The notes: generated by a model not told the origin, from the letters alone. 64,000 bases of DNA from a virus (IMGVR_UViG_3300026097_000010:1-64000); one strand, 5' to 3'; shown: positions 3,723-27,046, counted from the first letter of the stretch. Made by a program: numbers and translations.

Positions 3723-4278
3723 TCTGTTCACAAATCAAATTCATTTGTACTATAATTGCCATCGCATATGCTAGAGAATGCGACTTCTTAAAATAATATC
3801 CACTTTCGGGCTTAATCCAAACTTCCTTTAGTATAGTCGTCCACATTTCGTCTGCTAGGTATCTTTTTGCTGGACGAATTACTGCCAGTGTGGCTGCTAG
3901 TTGTTCTACGGTGGTTGGTTTCAGTTTCTTCAATAGATCTGAGTGCCCTGAGAGGTGAAATAGTTGATCTACAAAATCTCGATGTTCTAGAAGTTCCCAT
4001 AACGGCTCCGCGTTCATTAGTTCTACAAGGTGAGTTTCGTTTCGAACACCTTTATAAATACCTACATTTAAAAAATCCAGTTTAAAATATTTATAGTCGT
4101 CTGCTTCATCATAAGGTATTGCACATAGATTAGATACAGCATCAACAGGAACTTCATGTAGATAAACGCCTGTGTTATGTTTTACAAGTTTATTTTCTTC
4201 GCGCCGACTAGCTCTAGTATGTTTAAATAACTCTAATGCTTTTTCTCTATCGACAAAATCTATATCTATGTCAGGCAT
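3715..4278 (-). CDS. Minimal DNA polymerase III alpha (family C) catalytic-core protein
   Basis: MPDIDIDF, KHNTGVY, KLDFL, IRPA and YFKKSHSLAYA correspond in order to DnaE motifs PDxDxDF, HxGG, KxDxL, RPG and FNKSHSAAY. Confidence 0.85.
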   Translation of the reverse strand: MPDIDIDFVDREKALELFKHTRASRREENKLVKHNTGVYLHEVPVDAVSNLCAIPYDEADDYKYFKLDFLNVGIYKGVRNETHLVELMNAEPLWELLEHRDFVDQLFHLSGHSDLLKKLKPTTVEQLAATLAVIRPAKRYLADEMWTTILKEVWIKPESGYYFKKSHSLAYAMAIIVQMNLICEQIS

Positions 4279-4811
4279 TTATTATATCCTAAATATTCAA
4301 AATCTTTTCTAAGTTTATTGTATACTATTTCTTGAAGCTCGTCATTATAATATTTTCTATAATTGTCAGGCGTACTACGATTTAGATGAGGAAATTTAGA
4401 TGCAATTTTAAAATATTCAGGAACATCGGTAGATAATGATTCAAACCGAAATGTCTTATCTATTAAGTTTTTATCTTCAAGATCTAGCATATAATCTGTT
4501 TGTAGTTCCCAAAGATGTTGGCCACGACCGGCTAAGTTTTCTGATTTTATAAAACACTCAAACGATAAATTGCCGTACCTTCTTTTATCGCGTTTCGTCC
4601 AATTATAAAAACTAACAGTCCTGCTATACGGATTTCTAATTATACAAAACTTCCAACTAGGCTCATTCGAATATCTAACAGCAGGGATATGTTGATTATA
4701 AACATTAAATATGTCTGTTGAATTGCCACATGCGAAATCTAAACCATTATTTCTTAAAAATTTATAAGTGCTGGTCCCTCCATTTTTTCGTATGTGAATA
4801 AATCGAATCAC
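4266..4811 (-). CDS. Sulfotransferase (Sulfotransfer_2-like)
   Basis: FIHIRKNGGTS (5'-PSB loop) and RNPYSRTVSFY (3'-PB). Confidence 0.85.
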   Translation of the reverse strand: MIRFIHIRKNGGTSTYKFLRNNGLDFACGNSTDIFNVYNQHIPAVRYSNEPSWKFCIIRNPYSRTVSFYNWTKRDKRRYGNLSFECFIKSENLAGRGQHLWELQTDYMLDLEDKNLIDKTFRFESLSTDVPEYFKIASKFPHLNRSTPDNYRKYYNDELQEIVYNKLRKDFEYLGYNKCLT

Positions 4812-5227
4812 AGTTTGCCTTCAGACCTTAACTGTGCTCTAATTTTTGTAGCACTTATTTGATGCATATCCTCACCCAAGTCATGTTGCGTAAATGTATA
4901 ACCAACACCTCTACCATAACTGATATCCACAATGTTAGGCACTTCTATAATTACATATTCTTCACCATATGTAAATCCTTCTTTTAATAGTCCCACACGA
5001 ATATTTTCTTTCACAGTGTGTACATCAAACGGATTATCGTCCTGTGATGCTGTGCGTCCACCGCTGGCATCTTCACCTACGATACCACCAACGTCGCGTA
5101 TCATTATGCATACCTGTCCTGTTTCCATCAATGCTTTTTTAAACAGTGCAGTGTGTCCGTCGTGCCACGGTTGCCATCTGCCTAACATCTGTGTGGTAGG
5201 CTTTTTCCAATCAAACTTCTTTTTCAT
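4808..5227 (-). CDS. HIGH-type nucleotidyltransferase (cytidylyltransferase-like; candidate minimal ATP sulfurylase)
   Basis: GRWQPWHDGH and ISATKIR. Start moved to MKKKFDW (5227), which has GGAG upstream. Confidence 0.75.
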   Translation of the reverse strand: MKKKFDWKKPTTQMLGRWQPWHDGHTALFKKALMETGQVCIMIRDVGGIVGEDASGGRTASQDDNPFDVHTVKENIRVGLLKEGFTYGEEYVIIEVPNIVDISYGRGVGYTFTQHDLGEDMHQISATKIRAQLRSEGKL

Positions 5228-5438
5228 TTTTAACTCCATACTTGATATGTTTATACCATAGACGCTCGTGTCCATAGTACAGTACAAATTTGATTATCAA
5301 ATCTGCGACGAATACTCCTCCTACAGCTTTCGGTGGTAACCCAAAAGCAAATGCAATTAGTGCTGTAGTAATACTTGCTATCACCCGCCATGTAATAGCT
5401 TTTGCAACATGTCGTTTCCTTTCTACTGTTTCTGTCAT
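5211..5438 (-). CDS. DUF2061-like small membrane protein
   Basis: RHVAKAITWR..T..hydrophobic..KFVLYYGHERLW pattern. Confidence 0.8.
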   Translation of the reverse strand: MTETVERKRHVAKAITWRVIASITTALIAFAFGLPPKAVGGVFVADLIIKFVLYYGHERLWYKHIKYGVKNEKEV

Positions 5439-5851
5439 ACAATAGCTTCTTGTATTTGATTTCCTAAACTTGTTATTTCATTATCGCTTAGATGCTTGAT
5501 TACACGAAAATCAACATTTTTTGGTTGCTCAAACATTTTGTTTGTGTCTTCAAATCTGCCTTCTGTGATAGTATCAACCCAGATTTTAATATCCGCGTCA
5601 AACATCTCTCTGGCTTGTTCGGTTGGACATACAAAATCGCACATTACGATCCTTCCTTCACTCTTTTCAAAGTCTGCAATATGTCGCATACGTTTAGCTT
5701 GTCGAAGTCGACCTTCCGAAGTAAAATCCCAATCGTTTGCCATTTCTCTTACAGCATCTGCATTATACCAAGCATAGCCTAGTTGTTTTTGTAAACGTTC
5801 TGCTAAGTGTGTTTTTCCGGATCCTGGTAATCCCATTATTAATATTTTCAA
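5435..5851 (-). CDS. cysC: Adenylylsulfate (APS) kinase-like P-loop kinase
   Basis: GLPGSGKT, NADAVR, DFTSEGRLRQ, DFVCP, FEQP. Confidence 0.78.
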   Translation of the reverse strand: MKILIMGLPGSGKTHLAERLQKQLGYAWYNADAVREMANDWDFTSEGRLRQAKRMRHIADFEKSEGRIVMCDFVCPTEQAREMFDADIKIWVDTITEGRFEDTNKMFEQPKNVDFRVIKHLSDNEITSLGNQIQEAIV

Positions 5852-6531
5852 AGTATTTTAGCCTCTTCAATAACTTCTTTTACTAGAACATGATCAGCTG
5901 GATGATCTTTAAAACGTTTTATCCAATATTTTGGATCGATAACAAGACCGATAATTTCAAGTTGTTCGTCGTTCATATTCTGAAGTAGTTCCTTTCCAGC
6001 TCGTGTATTTAAAAGAAGCCACGGAGATATGTGTCCTTCTTTGATATGATGTGTTGCTCGATTTAGATTAACATACTTGAAGTAGTGTTCCCAGGCAGAA
6101 TTGTTTTCGTCAGCCCAATCCATCATAGTTTGAATAGTTCGTTGTATAGCACCGTCGGCAGGTTCGATCTTAATTAGTTCTTGAACATATTGATCATACA
6201 ATGCATCACGACACCAGTGATCTAACTTTACTCCGCTTTTAATAACCCATTCTATAAATCTTTCTGGATATATAGGAGAAGTATTTACCAGGAAGCTACC
6301 GAATTTAATAAATGCATTGTAGTACGGACTGCTCACGAAATCGTTAAATGTTTTAGGTTTTGTGCTAGGTTGTGCTACCTGATAAAATTTTTGATATGCT
6401 TGCAACGCCATTTGTGTATGTTTTTCATTTCTAGCAAGGTGTCTGCGTTTCTTTTCACACACATGTACTATAAGAGTTTTTTCACGGGCAAATTTTTTAC
6501 CGCAATATTCACATTTAAAGTTTAATTCCAT
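5848..6531 (-). CDS. Phage protein with N-terminal C2HC zinc finger
   Basis: FKCEYCGKKF..LIVHVC; probable start at MELNFK (6531). Confidence 0.7.
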   Translation of the reverse strand: MELNFKCEYCGKKFAREKTLIVHVCEKKRRHLARNEKHTQMALQAYQKFYQVAQPSTKPKTFNDFVSSPYYNAFIKFGSFLVNTSPIYPERFIEWVIKSGVKLDHWCRDALYDQYVQELIKIEPADGAIQRTIQTMMDWADENNSAWEHYFKYVNLNRATHHIKEGHISPWLLLNTRAGKELLQNMNDEQLEIIGLVIDPKYWIKRFKDHPADHVLVKEVIEEAKIL

Positions 6532-6979
6532 CGATTGCTTTTTTGTCCCATCCAAGGCTTTTACAGTATTCTTTAATTTCTTTGTCTGAAGTAATGGCGG
6601 CGATTGTTTCAATGTCTGCTCTTTTCTTTTCTGGAAATAGTTCTGCTAAAAATTCGATCTTTTTATTTTTTTCTTTCTTTACTTTAAGCCAAGGATGAAA
6701 ACGAATCTGCTTGCTTTCGTGAGCACAACTACATGCTAACTGCCAGCATAGCTTAGGATGCTTACTTAAAAATAAAAATAAATTTTTGTTAAATCGTTCA
6801 TTGGCTAGTAGTGTAAAGTGTTCTTGCATTTCTCTACTTCCTTCAACATTGCTAATGTATCGATTAAGAGTAAAGAAAACAATGCTCTTGCGTTGATCGT
6901 CTGTAAGTTCATCCCATAGATATTTTGCATCCATATCTACAGCCGCTAGTATTTCTTTAAGTGTGAGTTTATCTGCCAT
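6515..6979 (-). CDS. Clamp-loader small subunit (gp62-like)
   Basis: Size, FFTLNRYIS..LANE..HP..W..FHPWLK pattern, replication context. Confidence 0.6.
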   Translation of the reverse strand: MADKLTLKEILAAVDMDAKYLWDELTDDQRKSIVFFTLNRYISNVEGSREMQEHFTLLANERFNKNLFLFLSKHPKLCWQLACSCAHESKQIRFHPWLKVKKEKNKKIEFLAELFPEKKRADIETIAAITSDKEIKEYCKSLGWDKKAIDGIKL

Positions 6980-7226
6980 CTTTAATAATATAATACAAAG
7001 CTATAGTTTTGTCAAGTTGTTTTTTTAGAGTAGGATTATTGTTAGCTAATCTTTGTAGATTCTCCCACTCTCCCCAATTCAATAGTTCGCCTTTTGCTTT
7101 TGCAACTGCATCTGGGTCGCCTCCTATTATCCAGCGTTCTATATCCGGACGGTCTCGGTACCTAGCATAAACAACCCCGCTAGCTCTTTCGTATATTAAT
7201 GGCTCACCTGGACTAAGTTTAGACAT
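6969..7226 (-). CDS. Hypothetical protein
   Basis: 85-aa ORF overlapping both neighbours. Confidence 0.7.
   Translation of the reverse strand: MSKLSPGEPLIYERASGVVYARYRDRPDIERWIIGGDPDAVAKAKGELLNWGEWENLQRLANNNPTLKKQLDKTIALYYIIKDGR
6987..7015 (-). promoter_or_regulatory. sigma70-type promoter TTGACA-17-TATATT, 7 nt from the ATG at 6979
   Basis: tgtcaa at 7010-7015 and aatata at 6987-6992 on +. Confidence 0.65.
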
Positions 7227-7779
7227 TCGATTCGCCCATCACAAAGTATTTTTTTATCAACATTTTTTTATTTGTACCTTTGGGAGTTTTTTCAAATTCT
7301 TGCCAATCGTCTTTTAAAACTTTATATCCTAATTTATTAAATTTTGAGTTCCACCAGTTGCGACTTTCTATAATCAAATGTGCATTTCTTCCATCAGGCA
7401 GTATTAATTTTGCAGGGCTACAAGCTATAAGATGATAAAAATGTTTACTTCTTTTTCTTAAATACTCTAATGTTTCTTCTATATATTCAGGTTCTACGTG
7501 TTCTAATACATCCGAAGAAATTATCATATCGAAATATTTTTTATCTATAGATTTAGAAAATTCTGGATTGGCCGGGTCATATCCATCTACAATGATGTCA
7601 GGAAATGTTTCTTTAATCTTCTCGATAAGTTTGCCTTTGCCGCAACCAAAGTCTAATATAGTCTTTGGCTGTTTTTCTAAAATATATTTTTCTAAATGCC
7701 TTGGAAACTTTCCTCGCTTACCGAACGGTGTGTTACGGTGGATATCCTGATACATTTTTTTAAGATTATCTGATATCAT
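7219..7779 (-). CDS. Class I SAM-dependent methyltransferase
   Basis: ILDFGCGKG, GYDP, SSDVLEHV. Confidence 0.88.
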   Translation of the reverse strand: MISDNLKKMYQDIHRNTPFGKRGKFPRHLEKYILEKQPKTILDFGCGKGKLIEKIKETFPDIIVDGYDPANPEFSKSIDKKYFDMIISSDVLEHVEPEYIEETLEYLRKRSKHFYHLIACSPAKLILPDGRNAHLIIESRNWWNSKFNKLGYKVLKDDWQEFEKTPKGTNKKMLIKKYFVMGESNV

Positions 7780-8410
7780 AAGTTTCTCCGTCTAGAGGAT
7801 ACAAATATCTTAATTTTGATTTATAATGAAGAATTTTTGCATGAGGTGATTTTTTCTTTGCGAAATAAAAATTATTATAAATTGCACAAGGATAGACTTT
7901 AATTAATACATCATTTCGTACTACTGTGTCCCCGATGTTTGTAGAATTCACAGCTGATAATTTATTTAACGGTGGTTGATCGCTTATCCCTTGATCGGAC
8001 AAGGTTTTCCATTCTTTGATAAATCTTAGAGCATTTTCAGTTTTCTTTGCAAACACAATACCAGCATTTATAGGTAAGGGATGTTCTTTTTGTTTAGGCT
8101 GTCTTACAGTTACTCCAATATCGAATATATCAGCTTCTATTTCGTTAATTGGTTGAACTATCAAGGCATCAGCATCAAGCCAAATTACGGTTTCGTTATC
8201 TTCAGCTGAAAGCAATGCATCTTCAATAATATGTGGTTTACAAGGTATTTTTGCATTGTTTTCGGTGCCTACTCTTCCTATAAATGATTTACCATATCCT
8301 AGCTCTCCAAGATCGTAAACCAAGGTTTCGTATCCTAATCTATTATTATATTCAACAGCTTTATCAACATATGGTTTAAAGTTTTTATCACCGGCAACAA
8401 CTATTTTCAT
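7766..8410 (-). CDS. GT-A glycosyltransferase (nucleotide-diphospho-sugar transferase-like)
   Basis: KP..I, WLDADA, INAGIVF, SDQ..LN, ILHYK. Confidence 0.8.
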   Translation of the reverse strand: MKIVVAGDKNFKPYVDKAVEYNNRLGYETLVYDLGELGYGKSFIGRVGTENNAKIPCKPHIIEDALLSAEDNETVIWLDADALIVQPINEIEADIFDIGVTVRQPKQKEHPLPINAGIVFAKKTENALRFIKEWKTLSDQGISDQPPLNKLSAVNSTNIGDTVVRNDVLIKVYPCAIYNNFYFAKKKSPHAKILHYKSKLRYLYPLDGETYDIR

Positions 8411-9738
8411 TTAACTTTACCTATTCCTTTTCCTTTTTCTGTAACATGAAAGCCTCTTTTTTCTGATGCTTCGAACGGAAAATTATTTTGTTCTAAGTAT
8501 TCTGCCAGGGCATTTTTATATTTTTTATTTTTTAATTCCGTTGATAGCCATAAAAATTCTTGAACTAGGTCTCTATCCAAAAACGGATATCGAGTTTCTA
8601 TACCAAAATGTCCAGCAACATATTCTTCTTTATTTAAATATTGCACTTGGGTTCCATCCCAAAAGCTATGCCAAGGAAAAAATCCTTCTAGTGTTTCTGG
8701 AAACAATCCTCCAAAACTACTATGTTTATAAATGCGTTTTCCTGCAAATCCATAATCGCTTAGTATTTCGTCAGCACCTTGACCACTAAAGTAAATGCGT
8801 CTTCCGTCTAAACTAGCTCTATGACAAATTGCAGATAACCCCATAGAGGCTTGATCTTTTTTGATGTCATAGTTAAAGAAATGATCTTGATACTGAAAAT
8901 TTTCACAGTTATGTCTAAGTTCACCTTTCCACTTTTGAAATTCGTTTGAAGTTAATGTAAACGGTTCTGCATCGGTAATCTTGGCAAATCGCCGAGTTAA
9001 AATTTCATTGTTTTCGTTGTTTATAATAGAATATGCTTTAAAATTAGCATGTTGATTTTCTAATTCACAAGCAATTGCTCCGCTATCATAACCCGAACTC
9101 ATACCAATAAACATACCTTTATCGGTATTTGCAATTCTTTTTGAAATACTGTTCTGGAATGCATAGATCCAATCGTCGTAAGTATTTTTGTGTTGGGTTA
9201 GATCAAAAATAATATTATCAAAACTAGAAATTAATTTTAGTGTTTTTAGATCATAAACTTCTGTTTTGTTGCCTTTAAGTTTTTTACCGTTGTTAAATCC
9301 TAATCCTTGTAGTTGACTGTTATACGATGCAATACAAAATTTTTCATTAACAAATTCATACCAAAGAGGTTTACATGCAAATACATCATTAGCAATAATT
9401 ATTTTATTTTTAGAAAAGTCAATTAGACACAACGCAAATTCTCCGTCGAGTAAAGAAACAAATTTATCTCCGTTCGCTAGATACACATCGATGATTGACT
9501 CGCCGTCACTTTGGTAATTTCCAAAAGATTTGTAATTATATATTTCGCCATTAAAAACACATGCTATGTTATTTTTTATAAAAGGTTGGGGAATCTGTTC
9601 TCCTGTAATATGTAACAGATTGTGCAAAAATTGTATACCGTTTACAACTTTGCTATTTGTTAAATCAGGGCCTCGTTTTTGACATTTTGCGTTGACCGTT
9701 TTTAAATTATTAATATTCGATACACCAAATCCGCACAT
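8407..9738 (-). CDS. Asparagine-synthetase-like glutamine amidotransferase
   Basis: N-terminal MCG (Ntn Cys), RGPD, FNGEIYNY, SSGYDS PP-loop, SGQGADE, ETRYPFLD. Confidence 0.9.
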   Translation of the reverse strand: MCGFGVSNINNLKTVNAKCQKRGPDLTNSKVVNGIQFLHNLLHITGEQIPQPFIKNNIACVFNGEIYNYKSFGNYQSDGESIIDVYLANGDKFVSLLDGEFALCLIDFSKNKIIIANDVFACKPLWYEFVNEKFCIASYNSQLQGLGFNNGKKLKGNKTEVYDLKTLKLISSFDNIIFDLTQHKNTYDDWIYAFQNSISKRIANTDKGMFIGMSSGYDSGAIACELENQHANFKAYSIINNENNEILTRRFAKITDAEPFTLTSNEFQKWKGELRHNCENFQYQDHFFNYDIKKDQASMGLSAICHRASLDGRRIYFSGQGADEILSDYGFAGKRIYKHSSFGGLFPETLEGFFPWHSFWDGTQVQYLNKEEYVAGHFGIETRYPFLDRDLVQEFLWLSTELKNKKYKNALAEYLEQNNFPFEASEKRGFHVTEKGKGIGKVK

Positions 9739-9742
9739 ATTT

Positions 9743-10528
9743 TTACCTATGATATTCTAATTTTAAATTATTTAGAATTGCTTCTGCATGCTTCTTCACA
9801 GAATTATCTCCAGGAAAATCTAAAATAATATCATCATTGCTTTTATCGTAATCGCCGTTACTGTCGACCCACTTGTAATGATCTTTATTGACTTCAAAAA
9901 TTTTAATTTTTAATCCGTCAAAGTCATAATGTTTTTTAGTTTTATTTGATTCGTAGAATTTCGATACAATATTTTTTCTAGATACTAAATGATTTAAACT
10001 TAACATATCACCCCACCATGTTCTGTATTTTTCATCAAAGTTTTTATATATAGAATATCTTTCATTAAAAAAATGAACTACTTTATCATGGTTATTGGTA
10101 TTCGAGTTTACTAAAACAACTCCGTTGCTAAGATTAAATTTCTCGTCGTCATTAGGTTGGCTTAGACAGTATAATCCTATATCAAACTCTTCATTAAAAA
10201 AATGATGCACAGAACCTAAAACAATATTATCTACTCCTGTCAAAATGCTCTTACCTACGTTATCTTTTACGTAATTTAAATTAGCAACAATTAACGATTC
10301 CATTAAATTAAGTTGAGATAGATTCGATCTGTGGCATTTATATTCGAGATCTGTACTATTATCAGTTTGCACTATAAAATTATCAGACGGATTAAACATT
10401 TTAAAACTTTCGTGCAACAGCCGTAGATTTTTTCTATAGTCTACTTTGCCCACTCGTCTTTTTAATTTTTTGTGAGTCACCTCACTTGCATTGATGTCCT
10501 TATAAAAAGGAGCAAAGTTTATCATCAT
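9743..10528 (-). CDS. Hypothetical, divergent GT-A-like protein
   Basis: GVD, NGVVLV, WWGDMLSLN and DFPG resemble GT-A motifs but lack a canonical DxD. Confidence 0.5.
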   Translation of the reverse strand: MMINFAPFYKDINASEVTHKKLKRRVGKVDYRKNLRLLHESFKMFNPSDNFIVQTDNSTDLEYKCHRSNLSQLNLMESLIVANLNYVKDNVGKSILTGVDNIVLGSVHHFFNEEFDIGLYCLSQPNDDEKFNLSNGVVLVNSNTNNHDKVVHFFNERYSIYKNFDEKYRTWWGDMLSLNHLVSRKNIVSKFYESNKTKKHYDFDGLKIKIFEVNKDHYKWVDSNGDYDKSNDDIILDFPGDNSVKKHAEAILNNLKLEYHR

Positions 10529-11570
10529 CTAATTCTCTAAATGCATCAATAACCGCGTTATAATTTGTTCCTGGGTATATTGGCAAACTTAATTGTTTTG
10601 TAGCAAGCAAGTTTGTATTATCTAAATTATCTTGATTGAAAATATAAGGCTTGGACAAACTTACAGGAGTTGGATAATAAACACGAGTTTGCACACGATC
10701 TTTAATTTTTTCTATGACTTCTTCTCTATTATTCACAAGAACAGTATAGATGTTAAATGAATGTTCGGCTCCTTGCACTGTGTTAATATTACTAAAATAC
10801 TGATTATATTTTTCTGCAACTTCCCGTTTTGCTTCTAAAATTTTAGGATAGTATTTTAATTTTATAGAAACAAATTCTGCTTGCAAGTTATCCATCCGAT
10901 AATTATACCCAACATCACCCTCTTTCCATGTTCTGAGTGCAGAAATATTTTCATGTATATTTGCATCGTTTGTAATAATACAACCCGCGTCGCCGAGTGC
11001 ACCAACATTTTTACTTGGATAAAAACTAAAGGCTCCTACGGTTCCGAATGTTCCAACATGCTTTCCGTTTATAGTTGTTCCGTGTGCCTGGGCACAATCT
11101 TCTACTACAGGAATATTATATTTGTCTGCAATTGCCATAACAGCATTCATATCCACAGCATTACCAAACAAATGAACAGGAACAATACATTTTGTTTTAT
11201 CAGTAATCTTTGATTCAATAAGACTTGGATCCATACAAAATGTATCTTTATCGATATCAACATATACGGGAGTAGCACCTACATACATAATGGCCGCAAC
11301 AGTAGCTTTGAATGTATAACCTACTGTTATTACTTCGTCACCTTCCTTAATACCAAGAGCAAGTAATGCTAGGTGCAGTGCCGCTGTTCCGCTTGCTACA
11401 CCGGAACAATGTGATGCTCCAGTATATTCAGCAAATTCTTCTTCAAGTCGCTGTGTTCCTAAAATATAGTTTCCGCTTTCTATTACCGCACATGCTTTAC
11501 TTTTTAACTCATCTAAATATTCTTGATGAAGTCCTTGTAAATTAAAAAACGGTACTACTGTTCTATCCAT
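10500..11570 (-). CDS. DegT/DnrJ/EryC1/StrS sugar aminotransferase (GnnB/WbpE-like)
   Basis: SGTAAL, PVHLFG, EDCAQAHG, SFYPSKNVGALGDAG (PLP Lys), GYNYRMD. Confidence 0.93.
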   Translation of the reverse strand: MDRTVVPFFNLQGLHQEYLDELKSKACAVIESGNYILGTQRLEEEFAEYTGASHCSGVASGTAALHLALLALGIKEGDEVITVGYTFKATVAAIMYVGATPVYVDIDKDTFCMDPSLIESKITDKTKCIVPVHLFGNAVDMNAVMAIADKYNIPVVEDCAQAHGTTINGKHVGTFGTVGAFSFYPSKNVGALGDAGCIITNDANIHENISALRTWKEGDVGYNYRMDNLQAEFVSIKLKYYPKILEAKREVAEKYNQYFSNINTVQGAEHSFNIYTVLVNNREEVIEKIKDRVQTRVYYPTPVSLSKPYIFNQDNLDNTNLLATKQLSLPIYPGTNYNAVIDAFRELDDDKLCSFL

Positions 11571-13635: not shown

Positions 13636-13636
13636 A

Positions 13637-13981: not shown

Positions 13982-13996
13982 ATAATACCTCTAAGC

Positions 13997-14002
13997 TATT
14001 TA
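13997..14002 (-). promoter_or_regulatory. Late-type TAAATA motif heading the 13981-7219 sugar gene run (SD GAGGT present)
   Basis: caaTAAATAgcttagaggtattatATG on -. Confidence 0.55.
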
Positions 14003-14031
14003 TTGTGTAAAAAAATGCACCAAAAGTTTTG

Positions 14032-17832: not shown

Positions 17833-17838
17833 GTAATT

Positions 17839-17867
17839 ATTATAATAGATTTATAACAAGAAGTCAA
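17839..17867 (-). promoter_or_regulatory. sigma70-type promoter TTGACT-17-TATAAT, 6 nt from the ATG at 17832
   Basis: agtcaa at 17862-17867 and attata at 17839-17844 on +. Confidence 0.78.
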
Positions 17868-18706: not shown

Positions 18707-18772
18707 AATCCTTTACTAAATATTATCAGAGTATTTAATCTAAAAAATATTTTCAAGGACAAAATTAGATAT

Positions 18773-19991: not shown

Positions 19992-20830
19992 CAATTTCAG
20001 TAGTAACAACGTTTCACGAAGCAGGACTAAAACAGTACGGTCAGCGTATGATTAATACATTTATTGACAATTGGCCTGAGGAAGTTAAACTGTATGTATA
20101 CCCGGAAAAATGTAATCCTCAAGTACCCGACCATTCAAGAATAGTTTTAACTGATTTAGATTCAGTACAAGAACTTACAAATTTTAAAAACAAATGGCGA
20201 GGTGTTCCTAAAGCAAATGGCGATGTAAGTAGCGATCCTATTAGAAGCAAACGCAAAGATTCTGGAAAAGGTTTTAAATGGGATGCTGTGAGATTTGCTC
20301 ATAAGGTGTATGCTATATTTGATTGTGCGAAAAAATGCAATACAGAGTGGCTGTTCTGGATGGATGCTGATACAATCTGTCACAGTACTATTACTATGAA
20401 AGACTTAAATCGTATGTTACCTGGAAAACAAGAGTTATGCTATCTAGGACGCAAAGGCAAATACAGTGAGTGCGGACTGTACGCTATGAATTTAACATCT
20501 CCTAATATACAATTATTTTTAAAAGAATTTCAGCGTGTGTACGATGATGCTGAGAATGGTATTTTTAAAATGGCTGAATGGCATGATAGTTTTGTATTCG
20601 ATGGTGTTAGAAAAACTATACCTAATCTTAAACAACATGACTGGGCCGCCAGTCTATACGATATTAGACCAAGAGCAGGGATGAGTTCAGGTGAAGGTCA
20701 TCCACTTATTAATTCAGATTGGGGAGCATGGTTAGATCATCTCAAAGGCGGTAGGAAAAATTTAGGGATGAGTAAAAGAGACGATCTTAAAGTTCCTAGA
20801 ACAGAACCTTACTGGCAAAAATTTAAGTAA
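19988..20830 (+). CDS. GT-A glycosyltransferase
   Basis: RFAHKVYA, WMDAD, SECG, WHDSFVFD, DHLKG; probable start MTISVV (ATGA overlap). Confidence 0.8.
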   Translation: MTISVVTTFHEAGLKQYGQRMINTFIDNWPEEVKLYVYPEKCNPQVPDHSRIVLTDLDSVQELTNFKNKWRGVPKANGDVSSDPIRSKRKDSGKGFKWDAVRFAHKVYAIFDCAKKCNTEWLFWMDADTICHSTITMKDLNRMLPGKQELCYLGRKGKYSECGLYAMNLTSPNIQLFLKEFQRVYDDAENGIFKMAEWHDSFVFDGVRKTIPNLKQHDWAASLYDIRPRAGMSSGEGHPLINSDWGAWLDHLKGGRKNLGMSKRDDLKVPRTEPYWQKFK

Positions 20831-21752
20831 TATATTTTCTAAAGAATTGCCATGCTTCGCCGCTTTTTAATTCTTTAAAATTCCAGTGGCACATAGATAA
20901 TCGTTCGATCCATTCTTGTCTATCTGGAAAATCTGGAGTCTCTAACTTTGACAATCCGACATTAGCAACAGGATAGGCCTGACTATGCGTTGGAAGAGGA
21001 TCTGTTAAAAACACAGGTATTCCTTCTATAGCACTAGCAACTGCAGGACTAGAATTATATACAACTGTTGCCCACGCATTTTTAAGATCATTAATTAAAT
21101 TAGGAGAGTTACTAATTGTTACATTTTTGTGATTTATTCTCAGATACTGTCTTATTTTTTTATCACCTGGATGTGCGCGAACAATAATAGGACGTTTCCG
21201 TGAATACGACCTAATTTCAGCGATTGTTTTATCTAACCATTCCATTACATGTAACCCTCGCATACTCCAGCCGCCATTTCGTTGAAGACAAATTAAAATA
21301 TGATTACCGGAGGTTCGCCAAGGTTTTAATGAAATATTTAAATCGTTACTTATTTTTTTCCACCTGGTGGGATCAACATGCTCGTTAAAATAAAATCCAG
21401 TCGTAGGAAAAACTCCATTAAAACTATATCGGAGATAATGATTAACATTTTTAGGATCTGCATATAGAAACAAATTACTATCTACTATCAATGCTTTTTT
21501 ATTGTTTTTAATTTGCGTTTCGTATGCCTTTTTTCGTAATTGAAGATGCGGAGCTGTTTTACCGTGCTCGTGAACGAATCCTTGTATCAATGCAACATCG
21601 CAGGGTATAATATCTGTTCCTTTATGAGCAATAGCCGTATCTCCGGACGCTTGTACACCGGATATGAAATTATCTAGTATTTGTGGCTTTTCGGGATTGT
21701 TATTTTTTAAAGGTATTCCTTTATAGTAAGCAACCGCTGTTAACTTAGACAT
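20823..21752 (-). CDS. KpsC/KpsS-like GT-B protein (paralogue 2)
   Basis: KPWR.SG..ILICLQ, IIVRAHPG, YNSSPAVASAIEGIP. Confidence 0.62.
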   Translation of the reverse strand: MSKLTAVAYYKGIPLKNNNPEKPQILDNFISGVQASGDTAIAHKGTDIIPCDVALIQGFVHEHGKTAPHLQLRKKAYETQIKNNKKALIVDSNLFLYADPKNVNHYLRYSFNGVFPTTGFYFNEHVDPTRWKKISNDLNISLKPWRTSGNHILICLQRNGGWSMRGLHVMEWLDKTIAEIRSYSRKRPIIVRAHPGDKKIRQYLRINHKNVTISNSPNLINDLKNAWATVVYNSSPAVASAIEGIPVFLTDPLPTHSQAYPVANVGLSKLETPDFPDRQEWIERLSMCHWNFKELKSGEAWQFFRKYIT

Positions 21753-22839
21753 TGTATTTTTTTACCAGGTTATAAGCTGTTCCATTCATTAACTCTTCTT
21801 TTGTAAACTGGCTGTAACTTAACATGCATAACCAGTTCGCAATATTTCCTTTATATAGATCATTAATATCTGATAATTTATTTCTTGTAACAGGATTTGT
21901 TATATGCCTATCGAGAGTAATTGCGGGTACTCCTGCCCATATTGCTTCTGTTGCAGCATTTGAATTAATATTCACAATACAGTAATAATCTTCATTTAGC
22001 AATTCCTTATAAAGCCGTGTTCTTTCTCTTTTAGGAGCTTTTTCTCGAAAAACAATTTTTTTATCTGTATACTTTTTCAATTCTGTTTCTACATCGTACT
22101 TCCAACTTTTAAGATCTACGTGGAAGACTTGAGCGGCAAACGGGCCAGGCTCGATAACTAAAATTTTATCTCCGGAATCTCGCCAAGGTTTAGGAAACGA
22201 TTTAAAAATACCTAATCTATCAGCAGGAGCATCGAAATATTTTCCATAATGTAAATGATTTCTAACCAAACGATGCCATTTTTTGTTCGGTTCTAAAAAA
22301 TTTGTATATCCGCTGTCGACAAACCAAAACGGAAAATTGCTATCGACTTTTGTTACTAGTAAGTCCTCATTTCCTACTGTGTTTCTTATTAAACAGTCTG
22401 CACGATAATCATTGAAATCTTTTCGGCGAATAAACTCTCCCGTCGGATCTATACTTAGTCCGGTACCCTTAACAAAGTTTTTGTAATCGCTTTGCTGATA
22501 GAGTTTAAAAATGGTTTCAAGACCAATCTTATCAATAAAATAATCTATATTTTTATGAACTAGATTATAATAATTTTCTTTTCTTACAGCTAAAGATTCT
22601 GTAAGAAGCTGTCGATATTTTCTAGAATCGTGCATTACAGCTTTGAATAATTTTTCTTTTAATTTTTTCTTAACGGTATAATTGCTTTTTATTGTCGGGA
22701 TAGGATTTTTTCTTACAAACTCCGCTAAGAACTCAGACGTTTCGTGATCAAATTCTGGAAGACTTTTTAAGAAAGTAGTATGATCAATGCAACTTAATAG
22801 AAAATGTGCAATTTCTTTATTGTTTAATAATAATTTCAT
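21745..22839 (-). CDS. KpsC/KpsS-like GT-B protein (paralogue 3)
   Basis: DSGY, WHRLVRN, KPWRDSG, FREK, NSNAATEAIWAGVP, SQFT.EEL.NG; start at 22839 by ATGA overlap. Confidence 0.6.
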   Translation of the reverse strand: MKLLLNNKEIAHFLLSCIDHTTFLKSLPEFDHETSEFLAEFVRKNPIPTIKSNYTVKKKLKEKLFKAVMHDSRKYRQLLTESLAVRKENYYNLVHKNIDYFIDKIGLETIFKLYQQSDYKNFVKGTGLSIDPTGEFIRRKDFNDYRADCLIRNTVGNEDLLVTKVDSNFPFWFVDSGYTNFLEPNKKWHRLVRNHLHYGKYFDAPADRLGIFKSFPKPWRDSGDKILVIEPGPFAAQVFHVDLKSWKYDVETELKKYTDKKIVFREKAPKRERTRLYKELLNEDYYCIVNINSNAATEAIWAGVPAITLDRHITNPVTRNKLSDINDLYKGNIANWLCMLSYSQFTKEELMNGTAYNLVKKYNV

Positions 22840-23621
22840 TTTTTGTACTTCTGTGTTATTTTCCATGCTGTTCCGTTTTGTATTTCGTCAAGTGTAAACT
22901 GTCCGTATGCTAAATTACAGGCTTGTTTATATATCAACTCTTTTGTAGGCTTAAATGGGTTCTCAAGTTCTGACAGGTCGGTAGACGCTATCGGGCTTGC
23001 GGCACATGGTACACTAACAAATGCAGGTATGCCATACAATACTGACTCAACAGCTGCAATACTGTTAAATGCAACAGTCGCATATACACCACTATCAAAT
23101 GCATCGTAAATAGAGTACTCTCTATTCCTATAAACCCTAGAACCTTTTATTCTAATTTCAACTGGTAGATCTGAATATTTCGCGATATCTTTTTTTGTCT
23201 GATCAACCCATGTATCGTAATCAAAGTTGTAATATCGACAAGCTTTTGGGTTCGGCATTACTAATAATATTTTTTTCTTATAATTTTTCCAGCCGGACCA
23301 GTTAAGACTAGGATCTTGTTTTACAAGATTTTGCCATCGATCATCGGGTACATCTCTCAGTATAGAGTGCTGATTTTCATTTCTAACGACCCTATGCCAA
23401 ATCTTTTTTCCGTTAGGGTTTCCAAGACTAGGGAAGTTTCCAAGATACCCTGTATCTATATAATAAAAATCTCTTTTATCGTTTATACATTGTTCAACAT
23501 GATCCTTTTTAATAACTCCTCTAACAACTAATGGTTTGGTTTTATTAACAGGATCAGTTGTGCAAGCATTACCAGAGCCGTCAACTAGAGATTTTTCCAA
23601 AGATGTTTTGTCTTCTTTCAT
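22836..23621 (-). CDS. KpsC/KpsS-like GT-B protein (paralogue 4)
   Basis: DTGYLGN, WHRVVRN, NSIAAVESVLYGIP, GQFT.DEI.NG; start at 23621 by TAATG overlap. Confidence 0.6.
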   Translation of the reverse strand: MKEDKTSLEKSLVDGSGNACTTDPVNKTKPLVVRGVIKKDHVEQCINDKRDFYYIDTGYLGNFPSLGNPNGKKIWHRVVRNENQHSILRDVPDDRWQNLVKQDPSLNWSGWKNYKKKILLVMPNPKACRYYNFDYDTWVDQTKKDIAKYSDLPVEIRIKGSRVYRNREYSIYDAFDSGVYATVAFNSIAAVESVLYGIPAFVSVPCAASPIASTDLSELENPFKPTKELIYKQACNLAYGQFTLDEIQNGTAWKITQKYKK

Positions 23622-24412
23622 TAAATTTGCATAAGTTCCTTTGCTTTTCCTGATCGTAACTCGTTTGAATGGAATTGTCCATATGCCAAGGAACACCCCC
23701 AACGATACACTAGATCAGAGTCTGGGTAGTAAGGTTTTTCGATAAGTGACAGATCTTGTTTACTCACCGGCTTGGCAGCACTCGAAGGTGCAAGGGGGAA
23801 AACAGGAATTCCTTCAAAAATAGATTCAACGGCTGCATTACTGTTAAATGTAACCAATGCAAATACGTCGTCGTGTATTGCTTCTAAAAAAGGTTTATGA
23901 ACTGTTCTGTTTATTCTTTCTGGATCGCGCTTTCTGACTTCGATCGGCCGATCAGTATATTTTTTAATTTCGTTAATTGTTTCATTCAGCCAAGTATCTA
24001 ATGTTAAACCATAAAACTTCATCGGTTTATCGTCTGGGGCTGCAATTAAAATTTTACGTCCGTCCTTCTTCCAGGGTTTAATTTTTTTCTTAAAATTTTG
24101 AAATCTATCATCTGGCACATCTTTAATTTTAGTATGTTGAAGATCATTCTTTACAATTCTGTGCCAAAACTTCCAACCTTGCGGATTAGATTTACTTATT
24201 TCGTTTCCGAAGTATCCAGTATCCATATAAAAAAAAGTTCGATTATTTCTCCAGCACTTATGAATAATTTTCTTTTTTAAAATACCTCTTAATACAATTG
24301 CATCGGTCGATGTATCATACTCAAATTCATCAGGATCGACCGAAACAGACCTGCATCCTTTTGCAAACATGTTAACGTATGGATCTTTTCCGCCTTTGCT
24401 TAAAAATATCAT
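23621..24412 (-). CDS. KpsC/KpsS-like GT-B protein (paralogue 5)
   Basis: DTGYFGN, WHRIVKN, KPWKKDG, NSNAAVESIFEGIP, GQF..NELRSG. Confidence 0.6.
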   Translation of the reverse strand: MIFLSKGGKDPYVNMFAKGCRSVSVDPDEFEYDTSTDAIVLRGILKKKIIHKCWRNNRTFFYMDTGYFGNEISKSNPQGWKFWHRIVKNDLQHTKIKDVPDDRFQNFKKKIKPWKKDGRKILIAAPDDKPMKFYGLTLDTWLNETINEIKKYTDRPIEVRKRDPERINRTVHKPFLEAIHDDVFALVTFNSNAAVESIFEGIPVFPLAPSSAAKPVSKQDLSLIEKPYYPDSDLVYRWGCSLAYGQFHSNELRSGKAKELMQI

Positions 24413-25086
24413 AAATCGTGTTGTTCGCAGTATTCTGTTAGGATACGTTCACGATGCCATTCGTCCCCCATCGGTGTTGTCGCAAACTCGTGAAAACTAG
24501 GAGTACCTAATGTATAATGCAAAAGTTTTGCATCTTGATTTTCGCCATACTCGTCCGGCAACCAATTCCATTCGATGGGCAATTCTCCAATACGTTCATC
24601 ATCAAGGTGTTGAAATCTATGTAGTTCTGCACCTGTAGCATTCTGTACATATTCAGGAGTCAGTCTTCGATTAGGATGATTTTGGCAGTTCCAAAGAATA
24701 ACACTCGACCAGTTCTTTCTAGGGTAGTTTTCGTTCTTACTGCCTAGATATTTTTCTGTCATTTTAGTTTGATAATCGTGCTTTACAACCATTACATCTT
24801 TGTCACTTTCTCTTAGTTCCCATAGTTTGTAGATATCATCTCGCACAATCATATCACCGTCTATAAAGATTGCCCATCCTTTATAACTCATAAGATGCGG
24901 GACTAAAAATCGACTGTATACAAAATGATTAGAAGCATCAGTGTGCTTTTCTTCGTAGTCACCTAATAGACTAAGTGCCAATGGAATAATCTGAACAGGG
25001 CCGCTAGCGTGTCTTATAATTGAATTAACACACACGTGGTATGCTATTGCTTCTCTAGGATCATATCCTATAAAAACTGGGATCAT
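24409..25086 (-). CDS. GT8-like glycosyltransferase
   Basis: FIGYDPRE, SRFLVP, FIDGDM, RKNWSS, EWNWL, LHYTLGTP. Confidence 0.85.
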   Translation of the reverse strand: MIPVFIGYDPREAIAYHVCVNSIIRHASGPVQIIPLALSLLGDYEEKHTDASNHFVYSRFLVPHLMSYKGWAIFIDGDMIVRDDIYKLWELRESDKDVMVVKHDYQTKMTEKYLGSKNENYPRKNWSSVILWNCQNHPNRRLTPEYVQNATGAELHRFQHLDDERIGELPIEWNWLPDEYGENQDAKLLHYTLGTPSFHEFATTPMGDEWHRERILTEYCEQHDL

Positions 25087-25862
25087 GTATTTCTCCTTTC
25101 TATGTCCTTTTCAACACATTCTTCACCCCACTGTATCTCTAAAATATGTGCTGGGTCTGTTCCTGGATTACTAGCTTTATGCCAAACATCCTTGCCTATA
25201 CTATAAGTAAAACTGTTTTGTGTGAGATGAACAACGTCTTTAATACCTTCATATTCAGTCTCCATTTTTACTATACCTTCTAAGATTCGCCAGTCCTCCG
25301 ATCTCTTAAAGTGTCGTTGATCGGATAAACTTTTGCCTGGAAGTATTACTAATTCTTTTACTTTGTAGCCCTTTTCGGGTTTGTTATCAAGTACACGCCA
25401 ATATCCCCAAGGCCTTTCTGTTTTTTGTGTCTTCCACTCATCAAGAATCCAACTTGAAGAATTCTTTTTATCAGTGCCGCCGACGCCGAATACAAAACTT
25501 AATCTAGGATTGTTAACAGTCATTTCAGGAATATTGTCGTCAGTCCTATCGCCGCCGTTAGCAAAAATTACTTCATGTTCTGGATAATTTTCGAGGGTGT
25601 CCTTAATAAATTTCGTTGCACTGTTATCTGTGTCGTAATCGTCAGCGAATTGAATTACAACATCTACTATTCGTAACGCTTGAACGATTCCGGCTCGTTC
25701 TTCGCTAGGCATAAACGGCTTTCCTTTTTTACGAATAAGCCAAGAATCGCTATTGACTCCTACAATTAAAACATCGCCTAGTTTTTTTGCTTCGGTGAGA
25801 TATGAAATATGTCCGGTATGAATTGGATCAAACCCGCCTGTAACTAATACAATTTTACTCAT
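25083..25862 (-). CDS. Cytidylyl/adenylyltransferase (RfaE2/TagD-like) fused to a mannose-6-P-isomerase-type cupin
   Basis: TGGFDPIHTGH, GVNSD, ANGGDR, then ERPWG..LSDQRH..RSE.W..H; probable start MSKIVL (25862). Confidence 0.85.
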   Translation of the reverse strand: MSKIVLVTGGFDPIHTGHISYLTEAKKLGDVLIVGVNSDSWLIRKKGKPFMPSEERAGIVQALRIVDVVIQFADDYDTDNSATKFIKDTLENYPEHEVIFANGGDRTDDNIPEMTVNNPRLSFVFGVGGTDKKNSSSWILDEWKTQKTERPWGYWRVLDNKPEKGYKVKELVILPGKSLSDQRHFKRSEDWRILEGIVKMETEYEGIKDVVHLTQNSFTYSIGKDVWHKASNPGTDPAHILEIQWGEECVEKDIERRNT

Positions 25863-25901
25863 GACTTTATTTATAACGGCACCTAATGCATAAATATTTT
25901 C
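25863..25901. promoter_or_regulatory. Back-to-back late-type promoters (TATAAATA on -, TAAATA on +)
   Basis: TATAAATA-6nt-ATG(25862) on -; TAAATA-5nt-ATG(25902) on +. Confidence 0.7.
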
Positions 25902-26477
25902 ATGGTTACTCCTGTAAGATTTATACACATTGAAAAATGTGGAGGCACATCGGTTGCTAAATTCCTAAATGACAATAATTTTGATTTTTTAATGGGTAAA
26001 AATTTTAAAAAGAACAAAAAGCATTCTCATGCCGCAATGTTTGAACATGAGGATAGTTTTAAATTTACTGTTGTAAGAAATCCGTATACCAGATTAATTA
26101 GTTTTTATAATTACAATAAAAACAAGATCGGAAACTGCACTTTTGAAGAATTTGTTAAAAATAAATTAACAGAAAATCTCATAACTCTTCAGGTCATGAA
26201 AATTCATAAACCAATCGAAAATGCTGTTTTTGGGCCAATGTCGATAAGAGAATTAGAAAAACAATTTCATTGGGATAAAATGTTGGTTGATAAAATTTTC
26301 AAACTAGAGAATTTACAAGAACTAAAACAATACTTAAAAATAGATGCAGAATTTCCGATCGAAAACAAATCTATAAAAGCTAATCCGGAAAGTTATTACA
26401 ATTACGAACTTAAAGAAATTGTTGCAGATCACTTTAAAAAAGATTTCGAAATATTAGGATACAATTCAGAATTATGA
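25902..26477 (+). CDS. Sulfotransferase (Sulfotransfer_2-like)
   Basis: FIHIEKCGGTS, RNPYTRLISFY. Confidence 0.85.
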   Translation: MVTPVRFIHIEKCGGTSVAKFLNDNNFDFLMGKNFKKNKKHSHAAMFEHEDSFKFTVVRNPYTRLISFYNYNKNKIGNCTFEEFVKNKLTENLITLQVMKIHKPIENAVFGPMSIRELEKQFHWDKMLVDKIFKLENLQELKQYLKIDAEFPIENKSIKANPESYYNYELKEIVADHFKKDFEILGYNSEL

Positions 26478-27046
26478 AAAGATTTATACACATCCCTAAA
26501 ACAGGTGGAACCTCTATTAAGGAATGGCTTAGAAAGTTCACTGATGAAAAAATATTAGTTGATCTCGGATCGAATATTACAGGCTATCACAATCATCGTA
26601 TGCACTGTCGATGGTATAAGTTTAAAGGCGAGCGAACTGAAAAATTTTCTACTATTAGAAATCCGTTTCATAGGACTGTAAGCGGTTATAATTATTTAAA
26701 ATTTAAATTGAATAATCCTGCTCGAAAGATAGTATCTGAATCTTTTGAAGATTTTGTAATTTCTAGTTTGTTAGATTCTGCCGACGAAGTATTTTTACCT
26801 CAAATTTATTGGCTTAAACCTAGATCTAAAAGATTTCTTAAAGTTGAACATTTTTTTAAAATCGAAACAGAAATAGAAGAACTTCAATATTACCTCGGCT
26901 ATCATGCACCGATTCCTAAAATTAACATTAGCACACAGAAAAAATATGCAGAGTTTTACAAATCTAAAGAAGTACAAGATATTGTAAGAGAAAAATATTA
27001 TCTAGATTTTAAATTATTAGGATACGATATAGATACTATAGAGTAG
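26474..27046 (+). CDS. Sulfotransferase (Sulfotransfer_2-like)
   Basis: FIHIPKTGGTS, RNPFHRTVSGY. Confidence 0.85.
   Translation: MKRFIHIPKTGGTSIKEWLRKFTDEKILVDLGSNITGYHNHRMHCRWYKFKGERTEKFSTIRNPFHRTVSGYNYLKFKLNNPARKIVSESFEDFVISSLLDSADEVFLPQIYWLKPRSKRFLKVEHFFKIETEIEELQYYLGYHAPIPKINISTQKKYAEFYKSKEVQDIVREKYYLDFKLLGYDIDTIE

Follow-up and report, generated by a model that had tools for sequence, protein, structure and literature searches.

The first 64 kb of a 152-kb viral contig from IMG/VR (IMGVR_UViG_3300026097_000010), referred to here as the window, contain about 25 genes whose products build or decorate sugars. These genes lie in three islands interleaved with replication genes, and the enzymes that they encode are soluble. 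They include five related GT-B glycosyltransferases (GTs), four sulfotransferases, and the enzymes of an amino-sugar route, which together strongly indicate that the system makes an acidic, sulfated sugar chain. The contig has 137 open reading frames (ORFs) and is 42% complete as estimated by CheckV.

The backbone of the window belongs to a known type of large phage. Its UvsX and gp32 genes resemble those of 340-370-kb jumbo myoviruses (Rak2, Kaldavass, BF, XaC1 type) at 66-70% nucleotide identity; since the backbone is T4/Rak2-like, the "moraphage" lineage (PMC12619734) was not adopted. The primase-to-UvsY region of Erwinia phage Kaldavass is about 9 kb long and is without sugar genes. In the window the same backbone is stretched over about 26 kb, with the extra DNA consisting of the three islands, whose G+C content is 31-35% versus about 40% in the flanks. 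A megablast search with the whole sugar region found no match among isolated phages. The replication backbone includes the following genes, with UvsX and gp32 also belonging to this module:

1200-2228: primase
3715-4278: small DNA polymerase piece
15213-16667: helicase
27036-27491: UvsY

The islands (A, 4266-5851; B, ~6969-14643; C, 17864-27046) add up to about 18 kb. Between them lie about 4.3 kb of backbone, which encode phrog_11058, phrog_11758, phrog_11279, the helicase, and a helicase-like protein of 392 amino acids (aa). An initial annotation had described one 23-kb system. The unity of the system stands, given that relatives keep the islands together, but its contiguity was overstated, as there are three islands amid backbone genes. 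The gene content listed at that time is likewise real, although the list omitted an APS-kinase-like gene (5435-5851) and a small nucleotidyltransferase gene (4808-5287).

The 392-aa protein (16654-17832), located between the helicase and the GT-B array, is specific to this clade and evolves fast (33-43% identity in relatives versus 65-83% for the helicase). It was considered as an acceptor or a glycan gene. However, its model (predicted local distance difference test [pLDDT] 81, predicted template modeling score [pTM] 0.40) only weakly resembles SF2-helicase domains, and it was therefore treated as backbone. It has no homology to the exonuclease subunit that occupies the same position in Kaldavass.

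Glycosyltransferases, sulfotransferases and tailoring enzymes

The core of island C is an array of five GT-B genes:

17864-18706, minus strand: GT-B paralogue 1, KpsC/WbbB-like (paralogy; R-x-H-P kept; orthologues in relatives)
20823-21752, minus strand: GT-B paralogue 2, KpsC/WbbB-like, the most conserved (R-x-H-P kept; AlphaFold2 model; more than 4000 relatives, many 70-78% identical)
21745-22866, minus strand: GT-B paralogue 3, KpsC/WbbB-like (paralogy; no HP motif)
22836-23702, minus strand: GT-B paralogue 4, KpsC/WbbB-like (paralogy; no HP motif)
23621-24412, minus strand: GT-B paralogue 5, KpsC/WbbB-like (paralogy; no HP motif)

As had been proposed, the five are one family by sequence, and modeling together with structure searching assigns them the GT-B fold. 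They are basic proteins, with isoelectric points (pI) of 8.6-9.6. Sequence and profile searches with the five against Pfam, PHROGs, and the PDB gave no match. The AlphaFold model of paralogue 2, generated from an alignment of 82 sequences, has a pLDDT of 95.4 and a pTM of 0.92, and its best Foldseek matches (E ~1e-8) are KpsC, WbbB, and KrkA, which are retaining β-Kdo (3-deoxy-D-manno-octulosonate) transferases. In VIA, the model aligns with KpsC/WbbB/KrkA at Z scores of 13-14.8 over about 250 residues, versus no more than 10.8 for generic GT-B enzymes. The array thus shares its GT-B architecture with KpsC/KpsS (GT107), the N-terminal module of WbbB (GT99), and KrkA. However, the window proteins are only 10-15% identical to the solved structures, so that the likeness is one of fold only. 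In addition, unlike KpsC and WbbB, the window family is nearly all viral, and none of the KpsMTED export partners was detected.

A profile of the five paralogues retrieved 4601 representative clusters, and the nearest Atlas clusters of the family are ~100% viral. Among enzyme families of aquatic phages that lack an explanation, it is therefore one of the larger ones: it has about 4600 clusters, nearly all of them viral, and no Pfam model. Capsule_synth (PF05159) is found in 18% of the members of one Atlas neighbor cluster and matches one of the 82 GT-B family members, at 0.0038. In some family members, GT8 and KpsC-like domains are fused. Going by the modeled fold, the glycan probably contains a Kdo-type acid sugar donated by CMP-Kdo. 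This reading is independently supported by a relative, G001 (200 kb), which has the same array and in which genes for KdsB, KdsA, S-adenosylmethionine (SAM) synthetase, and an APS-kinase-like enzyme lie next to the helicase. This stretch of G001 (L098:7190-13244), which takes the place of islands A and B, also holds a gene of the Vut_1 (YhhQ-like) transporter family and a 2-oxoglutarate-Fe(II) oxygenase gene.

Sulfation genes are present in all three islands. In the list below, the Pfam gathering score for Sulfotransfer_2 (PF03567) is 22 bits; APS and PAPS are adenosine 5'-phosphosulfate and 3'-phosphoadenosine 5'-phosphosulfate, respectively:

4266-4811, minus strand: sulfotransferase paralogue 1 (Sulfotransfer_2, 18 bits, below the gathering score; 39% identical to 25902-26477; PAPS motifs kept)
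14032-14643, minus strand: sulfotransferase paralogue 2 (Sulfotransfer_2, 26.1 bits; motifs kept)
25902-26477, plus strand: sulfotransferase paralogue 3 (Sulfotransfer_2, 40.1 bits; motifs kept)
26474-27046, plus strand: sulfotransferase paralogue 4 (Sulfotransfer_2, 33.5 bits; motifs kept)
5435-5851, minus strand: short APS-kinase-like P-loop kinase (APS_kinase, PF01583, 39.1 bits versus a cut-off of 21.1)
4808-5287, minus strand: small HxGH/ISxTxxR nucleotidyltransferase (C-terminal half of phrog_10255, E 1.4e-19)
5211-5438, minus strand: DUF2061 small hydrophobic protein of 75 aa, within the kinase-nucleotidyltransferase cassette (PF09834, E 2.2e-14, above cut-off)

The four sulfotransferases are paralogues, mutually 25-39% identical. 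The initial annotation had assigned them to the Sulfotransfer_2 type, and indeed all match this Pfam family, three of the four above the gathering score. Each retains the 5'-phosphosulfate-binding motif (5'-PSB, FIHIxKxGGTS), which has the variant KNAGNS in 14032-14643, and the 3'-phosphate-binding motif (3'-PB, KFxxIRNPxxRxxS). By family and motifs, the four genes would encode PAPS-dependent sulfotransferases, with transfer of sulfate to carbohydrate as the predicted reaction.

The cassette in island A is a candidate source of PAPS. Within the 138-aa kinase, the APS_kinase match covers residues 3-86; the P-loop is present, FVCP replaces FISP, and NAD replaces DGD. The best PDB match is the APS kinase 2yvu (E 1.6e-9). 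The small nucleotidyltransferase has the motifs WHDGH and ISATKIR, matches CTP_transf_like (0.018) and ATP-sulfurylase (0.048) weakly, and probably starts near 5230, past the DUF2061 ORF. Its homologue accompanies the kinase in six viral loci. The two enzymes may supplement PAPS, with the nucleotidyltransferase as a candidate sulfurylase. A NadR- or CoaD/CoaE-like identity for the pair was rejected because APS kinase is the better match and because unrelated contigs likewise combine the pair with several sulfotransferases.

The other genes of islands B and C encode amino-sugar enzymes, additional transferases, and tailoring enzymes:

7219-7779, minus strand: SAM methyltransferase (Methyltransf_23, 40.6 bits)
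7766-8410, minus strand: GT-A-like transferase, weak (Nucleotid_trans, 16.7 bits, below cut-off; DAD motif; 47% orthologue in relative L014)
8407-9738, minus strand: AsnB-type glutamine amidotransferase, candidate for sugar-acid amidation (GATase_7 and Asn_synthase matches; N-terminal MCG)
9743-10528, minus strand: 261-aa protein, a companion of the amino-sugar genes (no family match; 72% orthologue at the same place in L014)
10500-11570, minus strand: DegT/GnnB-type sugar aminotransferase (DegT_DnrJ_EryC1, 323.6 bits)
11555-12457, minus strand: GFO/IDH/MocA oxidoreductase, UDP-GlcNAc 3-dehydrogenase-like (GnnA-like; Pfam matches)
12454-13056, minus strand: short LpxA-like left-handed β-helix N-acyl/acetyltransferase (Hexapep match; LpxA models 118-124 bits, below cut-offs)
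13057-13635, minus strand: methyltransferase-like, weak (Methyltransf_23, 19.7 bits, below cut-off)
13637-13981, minus strand: WbuC-like cupin that opens the operon of island B (Cupin_2, 31.6 bits; WbuC cupin, 27 bits; 84-86% orthologues in relatives)
18773-19585, plus strand: SGNH-like esterase/acyltransferase, by motif only (N-terminal VVGDSFS; no family match)
19575-19991, plus strand: 138-aa protein beside the GT-B array (26-39% orthologues in relatives)
19973-20830, plus strand: GT-A-like transferase, a lead (DAD motif; Atlas neighbors with Nucleotid_trans/GT8 in 18-31% of members)
24409-25086, minus strand: GT8 retaining glycosyltransferase (Glyco_transf_8, 33.3 bits versus a cut-off of 24.3)
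25083-25862, minus strand: nucleotidyltransferase (RfaE domain II/TagD-like) fused to a mannose-6-phosphate-isomerase-type cupin (CTP_transf_like 52.2, MannoseP_isomer 71.6, rfaE_dom_II 82 bits)

Several of these assignments agree with what had been read from the sequence before. The amino-sugar trio (DegT aminotransferase, GFO/IDH/MocA oxidoreductase, hexapeptide transferase) is matched throughout by Pfam, the amidotransferase by AsnB-like models, and the cupins and nucleotidyltransferase by Pfam and NCBIfam. Since the amidotransferase begins with MCG, its glutaminase cysteine is retained. For the oxidoreductase, the NCBIfam UDP-GlcNAc 3-dehydrogenase model scores 94 bits, below its equivalog cut-off, and the best PDB match is 7bvj; the β-helix transferase is best matched by the 189-aa 8e62 (E 5e-30). 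The same three enzyme families occur together in the GnnA/GnnB/LpxA and WbpB/WbpE/WbpD routes to 3-amino sugars, and here they lie in one operon. However, the trio falls far under the NCBIfam equivalog cut-offs, and a UDP-GlcNAc 6-dehydrogenase is absent here. The fused nucleotidyltransferase-cupin probably starts at the ATG at 25862.

Other assignments held in part. Of the three to four GT-A enzymes counted initially, the GT8 enzyme passes Pfam, whereas 7766-8410 and 19973-20830 are weak matches or Atlas leads with a DAD motif only; orthologues of 19973-20830 (47-93% identity) accompany the GT-B array in every case. One of the two methyltransferases (7219-7779) is solid and the other (13057-13635) is under the Pfam cut-off. 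The SGNH protein does have the N-terminal GDS motif, but this motif is the sole basis of the assignment, and the gene has no orthologue in the close relatives L006-L013.

No island enzyme has a transmembrane-like segment; the DUF2061 ORF is the sole membrane-like ORF of the region. Neither an exporter, flippase, polymerase, or initiating phosphoglycosyl transferase nor any multi-pass membrane protein was found among the 137 ORFs of the 152-kb, 42% complete contig. A transmembrane scan of the region and the entire contig thus confirmed that the enzymes are soluble and that no membrane machinery is visible, as first proposed.

Modularity in relatives and late-type promoter motifs

Comparison with related viral contigs indicates how these genes belong together. 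Eight close relatives (L006-L013) keep the five paralogues, the GT8 gene, the nucleotidyltransferase-cupin, and two plus-strand genes between helicase and UvsY, and all eight are without sulfotransferases. Each paralogue has its own orthologue in L006, at 43-73% identity, and the situation is similar in L007-L013. In L014, islands B and C are joined as one block that adjoins UvsY. In L020, the kinase, the small nucleotidyltransferase, and a sulfotransferase come directly after the nucleotidyltransferase-cupin gene, and in L028, L030, and L045 a sulfotransferase lies within the array. Three unrelated large contigs (L036, L067, L071) have the kinase and small nucleotidyltransferase together with three or four sulfotransferases. 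Thus, the islands, which are contiguous or reshuffled yet together in relatives, represent one modular system. As judged from gene content, its inner assembly line is conserved and its modules for decoration and cofactor supply are interchangeable.

Homologues of the GT-B family are also present in cultured phages. In Pelagibacter phage Mosig (L094:8949-13450), the homologue is in a transferase cluster, with two methyltransferases and a "putative sulfotransfer" gene as neighbors. In Caulobacter phage CcrColossus (L095:7318-11871), it is in a GT cluster (GT9, GT-A, sialyltransferase-like) located between tail proteins and the lysis cassette.

Several units of the islands are preceded by TAAATA, a motif also found before structural genes. 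Overall, TAAATA is rarer in the window than expected by chance (63 copies versus ~115). It is enriched about ten-fold before genes, with 24 copies within 40 nt upstream of the 137 starts versus 2.4 expected. Large structural genes, that of the sheath included, have the motif upstream. Within the islands it stands ahead of the cupin operon, the nucleotidyltransferase-cupin, sulfotransferase 25902, and the first KpsC-like gene; it is not found before primase, helicase, UvsX, UvsY, or gp32. Two classes of spacing are seen. In class 1 (for example, the sheath and large structural genes), the motif is 15-33 nt before the start, with a Shine-Dalgarno sequence between. In class 2, which comprises ten genes, it is 4-8 nt before the ATG. 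This leaves no room for a Shine-Dalgarno sequence and suggests leaderless or near-leaderless late mRNAs. The sites and the associated sigma factor gene are:

25868-25896, both strands: divergent pair (class 2), with TATAAATA on the minus strand at 25875-25868, 5 nt before the ATG at 25862, and TAAATA on the plus strand at 25891-25896, 5 nt before the ATG at 25902
32614-32619, 36134-36139, 38542-38547, 42783-42788 and 50760-50765: other class 2 sites of the window
18717-18737, both strands: TAAATA between divergent genes (gap 18707-18772); on the minus strand, the motif is 25 nt before the 17864-18706 start
13997-14002, minus strand: TAAATA 15 nt before the cupin start
L102:1501-1713 (G000:C1:95936-96148), minus strand: gp55 homologue, ORF 95816-96658; also in G001 and G002

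The island sites that had been pointed out before (13997, 18717/18732, 25869/25891) are therefore real and far above chance. Conservation differs among them. Of 16 relatives, 15 have the motif ahead of the nucleotidyltransferase-cupin, 2-5 nt upstream of the start, and 12 of 15 have it ahead of the first KpsC-like gene. The cupin motif is not conserved (0 of 5 relatives). The regions before UvsX, helicase, and gp32 have the motif in 1 of 14, 0 of 6, and 0 of 13 relatives, respectively. In addition, the contig encodes a protein homologous to T4 gp55, a sigma factor of late transcription (E 5e-6; residues 43-115 are 39% identical), and a TATAAATA-like core together with gp55 constitutes a T4-type late unit. 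Late co-expression, which had been proposed from the motif, is thus well supported by its enrichment and distribution, by its conservation in relatives, and by the gp55 homologue, and we infer that the islands are expressed late with the particle genes.

A σ70 reading of the cupin promoter was rejected: the -10 hexamer abuts the ATG, and σ70-like sites are as numerous in shuffled sequence. Two minus-strand sites match σ70 elements at 11 of 12 positions, TTGACT-17-TATAAT (17839-17867) and TTGACA-17-TATATT (6987-7015), although the equal count in shuffled sequence applies to such sites too. These end 6-7 nt before the ATGs of the backbone genes 16654-17832 and 6515-6979 and would give leaderless early transcripts. 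Upstream of gp32 (29890-29950; same position in L006-L077), GGCATA and TAGGCATA repeats are conserved in 13 relatives. The glycan genes lack these words, which may represent an operator or an element of middle promoters.

The glycan and its acceptor

A pathway is strongly indicated by these enzymes. The GnnA-like dehydrogenase, the DegT aminotransferase, and the LpxA-like N-acyl/acetyltransferase would convert UDP-GlcNAc to a 3-amino or 3-acylamido sugar, and the AsnB-type enzyme, methyltransferases, and cupins would tailor sugars further. A defined oligosaccharide would then be assembled by the five KpsC/WbbB-like GT-B enzymes, GT8, the two probable GT-A enzymes, and the nucleotidyltransferase-cupin. 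The four sulfotransferases would sulfate this chain, and the APS-kinase-like enzyme and small nucleotidyltransferase may top up PAPS. These steps would take place in the cytoplasm, with the units driven from T4-late-like (TA)TAAATA motifs and switched on with the particle genes. The five GT-B enzymes would make a conserved inner part, while the outer sulfate, amino sugar, and methyl groups would vary between close relatives.

As a whole, the system is outside any characterized one. It is most like an assembly line of the capsule or lipopolysaccharide (LPS)-core type minus its membrane parts, none of which was found in the contig, in contrast to Kps capsule, Wzx/Wzy, and ABC O-antigen systems. 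What is added here are the four sulfotransferases, the candidate PAPS cassette, the amino-sugar route, and the comparative evidence for late promoters. To our knowledge, sugar clusters in phages have been recognized since the first large cyanophage genomes, and their target has never been tested experimentally. The "LPS" or "cell wall" clusters of large T4-like cyanophages (P-SSM2, S-SCSM1, S-SCSM2R; PMC12801897) likewise combine many GTs with nucleotide-sugar enzymes in big aquatic myoviruses, in one case with kdsA/kdsB. However, the five-paralogue KpsC-like array, the four sulfotransferases, the candidate PAPS supply, the late-type promoters, and the Rak2-like backbone set the present system apart.

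The acceptor that we favor, tentatively and at slightly less than an even chance, is a protein of the phage particle; the virion would then bear an acidic, sulfated glycan coat. The late-type promoters, the independence from any exporter, and the presence of a nearly all-viral family across phages of unrelated hosts argue for such an acceptor, as do the location of the CcrColossus cluster between tail and lysis genes and the presence of a GT9 and carbamoyltransferase pair among the window's own tail genes. There are precedents in the cytoplasmic O-linked addition of Kdo to flagellin (bioRxiv 10.1101/2020.06.03.131540) and in mycobacteriophage virion glycosylation, as cited in PMC12619734. In the mycobacteriophage systems (capsid and tail-tube glycans; Freeman et al. 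2023, via PMC12619734) and those of giant viruses (fibril and capsid glycans; PMC9614988), soluble virus-encoded enzymes similarly work in the cytoplasm, without exporters, and are co-expressed with structural genes. By these accounts, however, those genes adjoin their structural targets and the glycans have been shown chemically, whereas here the target is read from the genes. Adjacency to capsid or tail genes of the mycobacteriophage type was not found, as only the GT9 and carbamoyltransferase pair lies among tail genes.

Several observations weigh against a Kdo-containing coat on the particle. The sequence names no acceptor, and a signature of structural-protein glycosylation was neither sought nor found. 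In this clade the islands sit in the replication/recombination module, away from capsid and tail genes, and the Mosig cluster is also near primase and ribonucleotide reductase genes. Late timing is predicted from motifs. Capsule_synth (PF05159) is absent among the five paralogues and has no match contig-wide even at E 10; the CMP-phosphate-binding HP motif (R-x-H-P) is present in only two of the five (17864, 20823); and the strand expected to bear QxxxD, with the catalytic Asp (KpsC D160, WbbB D232), is variable. Since kdsA/kdsB were not found in this contig, the Kdo donor is read from the fold and from one relative (G001). Finally, comparable gene sets in large cyanophages have been interpreted as modifiers of the host cell surface (PMC12801897).

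The step from soluble, late-made enzymes to virion proteins, which the initial annotation took, was not borne out, as soluble transferases with lipid acceptors and the glycosylation of DNA with Kdo or heptose offer alternatives. The transferases of O-antigen, core, and KpsC/KpsS pathways are likewise soluble or peripheral, act on lipid acceptors, and use host exporters. Thus, the enzymes might instead remodel the host envelope, acting at the inner membrane face on lipid-linked acceptors (lipid A-core, lyso-phosphatidylglycerol, or undecaprenyl-linked glycans), with host exporters displaying the sulfated glycan. Such a display would serve to mask receptors, to exclude superinfecting phages, or to keep progeny off cell debris. 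We consider both this acceptor and this purpose unlikely. The closest structural relatives, KpsC and WbbB, do use lipid-anchored acceptors; GT8, GT9, RfaE-domain-II-like, LpxA-like, and GnnA-like enzymes are classic LPS-pathway families, and all families that could be recognized are of LPS or capsule type; the basic pI of the five GT-B proteins is what peripheral membrane enzymes would have; and the published reading of "cell wall synthesis and modification" genes in large cyanomyoviruses, kdsA and kdsB included (PMC12801897), points the same way. However, since neither an exporter or flippase nor a polymerase or initiating transferase was found in the 152 kb, the phage would depend totally on host machinery, and late-type promoters acting shortly before lysis would leave little time for display. 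Furthermore, the phages that carry the family differ widely in their hosts (Caulobacter, SAR11, the Rak2-like clade), its nearest relatives are almost all viral, and the inner array is a conserved core of the clade, unlike a host-specific add-on.

The surroundings of the islands (primase, helicase, UvsY, UvsX, gp32) would suit hypermodification of DNA, in which Kdo, heptose, or N-acetylhexosamine (HexNAc)-type sugars, possibly sulfated, are placed on a modified base as protection against restriction, similar to phage glycosylation of 5-hydroxymethylcytosine (5hmC). Addition of heptose and Kdo to 5hmC has been demonstrated for phage GT-B enzymes that come with a cytidylyltransferase and a kinase, and such GTs are often near replication genes (Pyle et al., bioRxiv 10.1101/2023.12.21.572611), and both the basic nature of the transferases and decorations that differ between close relatives, in the style of a restriction arms race, agree with this idea. 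Nevertheless, we regard it as improbable. The present system differs from those clusters in having far more enzymes, sulfotransferases, a structural match that is not T4-βGT-like, and no 5hmC-forming enzyme. A thymidylate-synthase-like hydroxymethylase (PF00303) was found neither in the contig nor in five related contigs, and TET/JBP (PF12851) was not found in the contig, although all records are at most 57% complete, which makes these absences weak evidence. T4 β-glucosyltransferase is outside the top 50 structural matches, a list from which absence does not exclude likeness. About nine transferases, four sulfotransferases, and an amino-sugar route far exceed known DNA modifications, which are trisaccharides at most; no DNA sulfation is known; and the CcrColossus homologues lie between tail and lysis genes. 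Lastly, the product might be another cytoplasmic one: a soluble sulfated oligosaccharide or glycolipid, or a glycosylated non-structural phage or host protein, serving, for example, to inhibit defense or alter host physiology. In its favor, the sequence names no acceptor and the enzymes are all soluble, and the extra SAM synthetase and KdsA/KdsB of relatives suggest high flux more than stoichiometric decoration. Nonetheless, such a phage product has no known precedent, five conserved, non-redundant transferases suggest a defined structure on a macromolecular acceptor, and the genes are co-regulated with structural genes; this explanation is accordingly rather unlikely.

The wider form of the virion-coat reading is that a very abundant clade of aquatic jumbo phages, together with other carriers, coats its particles with a self-made sulfated Kdo glycan that is conserved inside and diversifying outside, with phage-supplied PAPS that may involve a minimal new ATP-sulfurylase-like enzyme. 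Taken in full, this proposal is possible but doubtful. A search of the literature found no sulfated phage virions, and, as far as such searches reach, neither sulfation nor a Kdo-transferase-like array acting on a phage particle has been described. If true, it would provide the first case of a phage particle bearing a sulfated glycan. Phages of seas and lakes would carry charged glycans, with consequences for host recognition and adsorption as well as for aggregation, grazing, and decay, and a viral sink for sulfate and Kdo would be added. An envelope or DNA target would instead mean a new chemistry of receptor masking or anti-restriction. Cultured carriers of the GT-B family are available in the Caulobacter jumbo phages (CcrColossus, CcrBL9, and CcrPW, with C. 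vibrioides CB15 as host) and Pelagibacter phage Mosig.

Sugar genes outside the islands

Additional sugar genes are found elsewhere in the window:

50817-52601: carbamoyltransferase, full-length, NodU/CmcH-type, among tail genes
52612-53547: GT9-like gene of the heptosyltransferase family, among tail genes, next to the carbamoyltransferase
3-1106, minus strand: another carbamoyltransferase, directly downstream of primase, which runs off the contig start

Four paralogues of ~330 aa adjoin the 50817-53547 locus and may be acceptors or partners of the glycan system.

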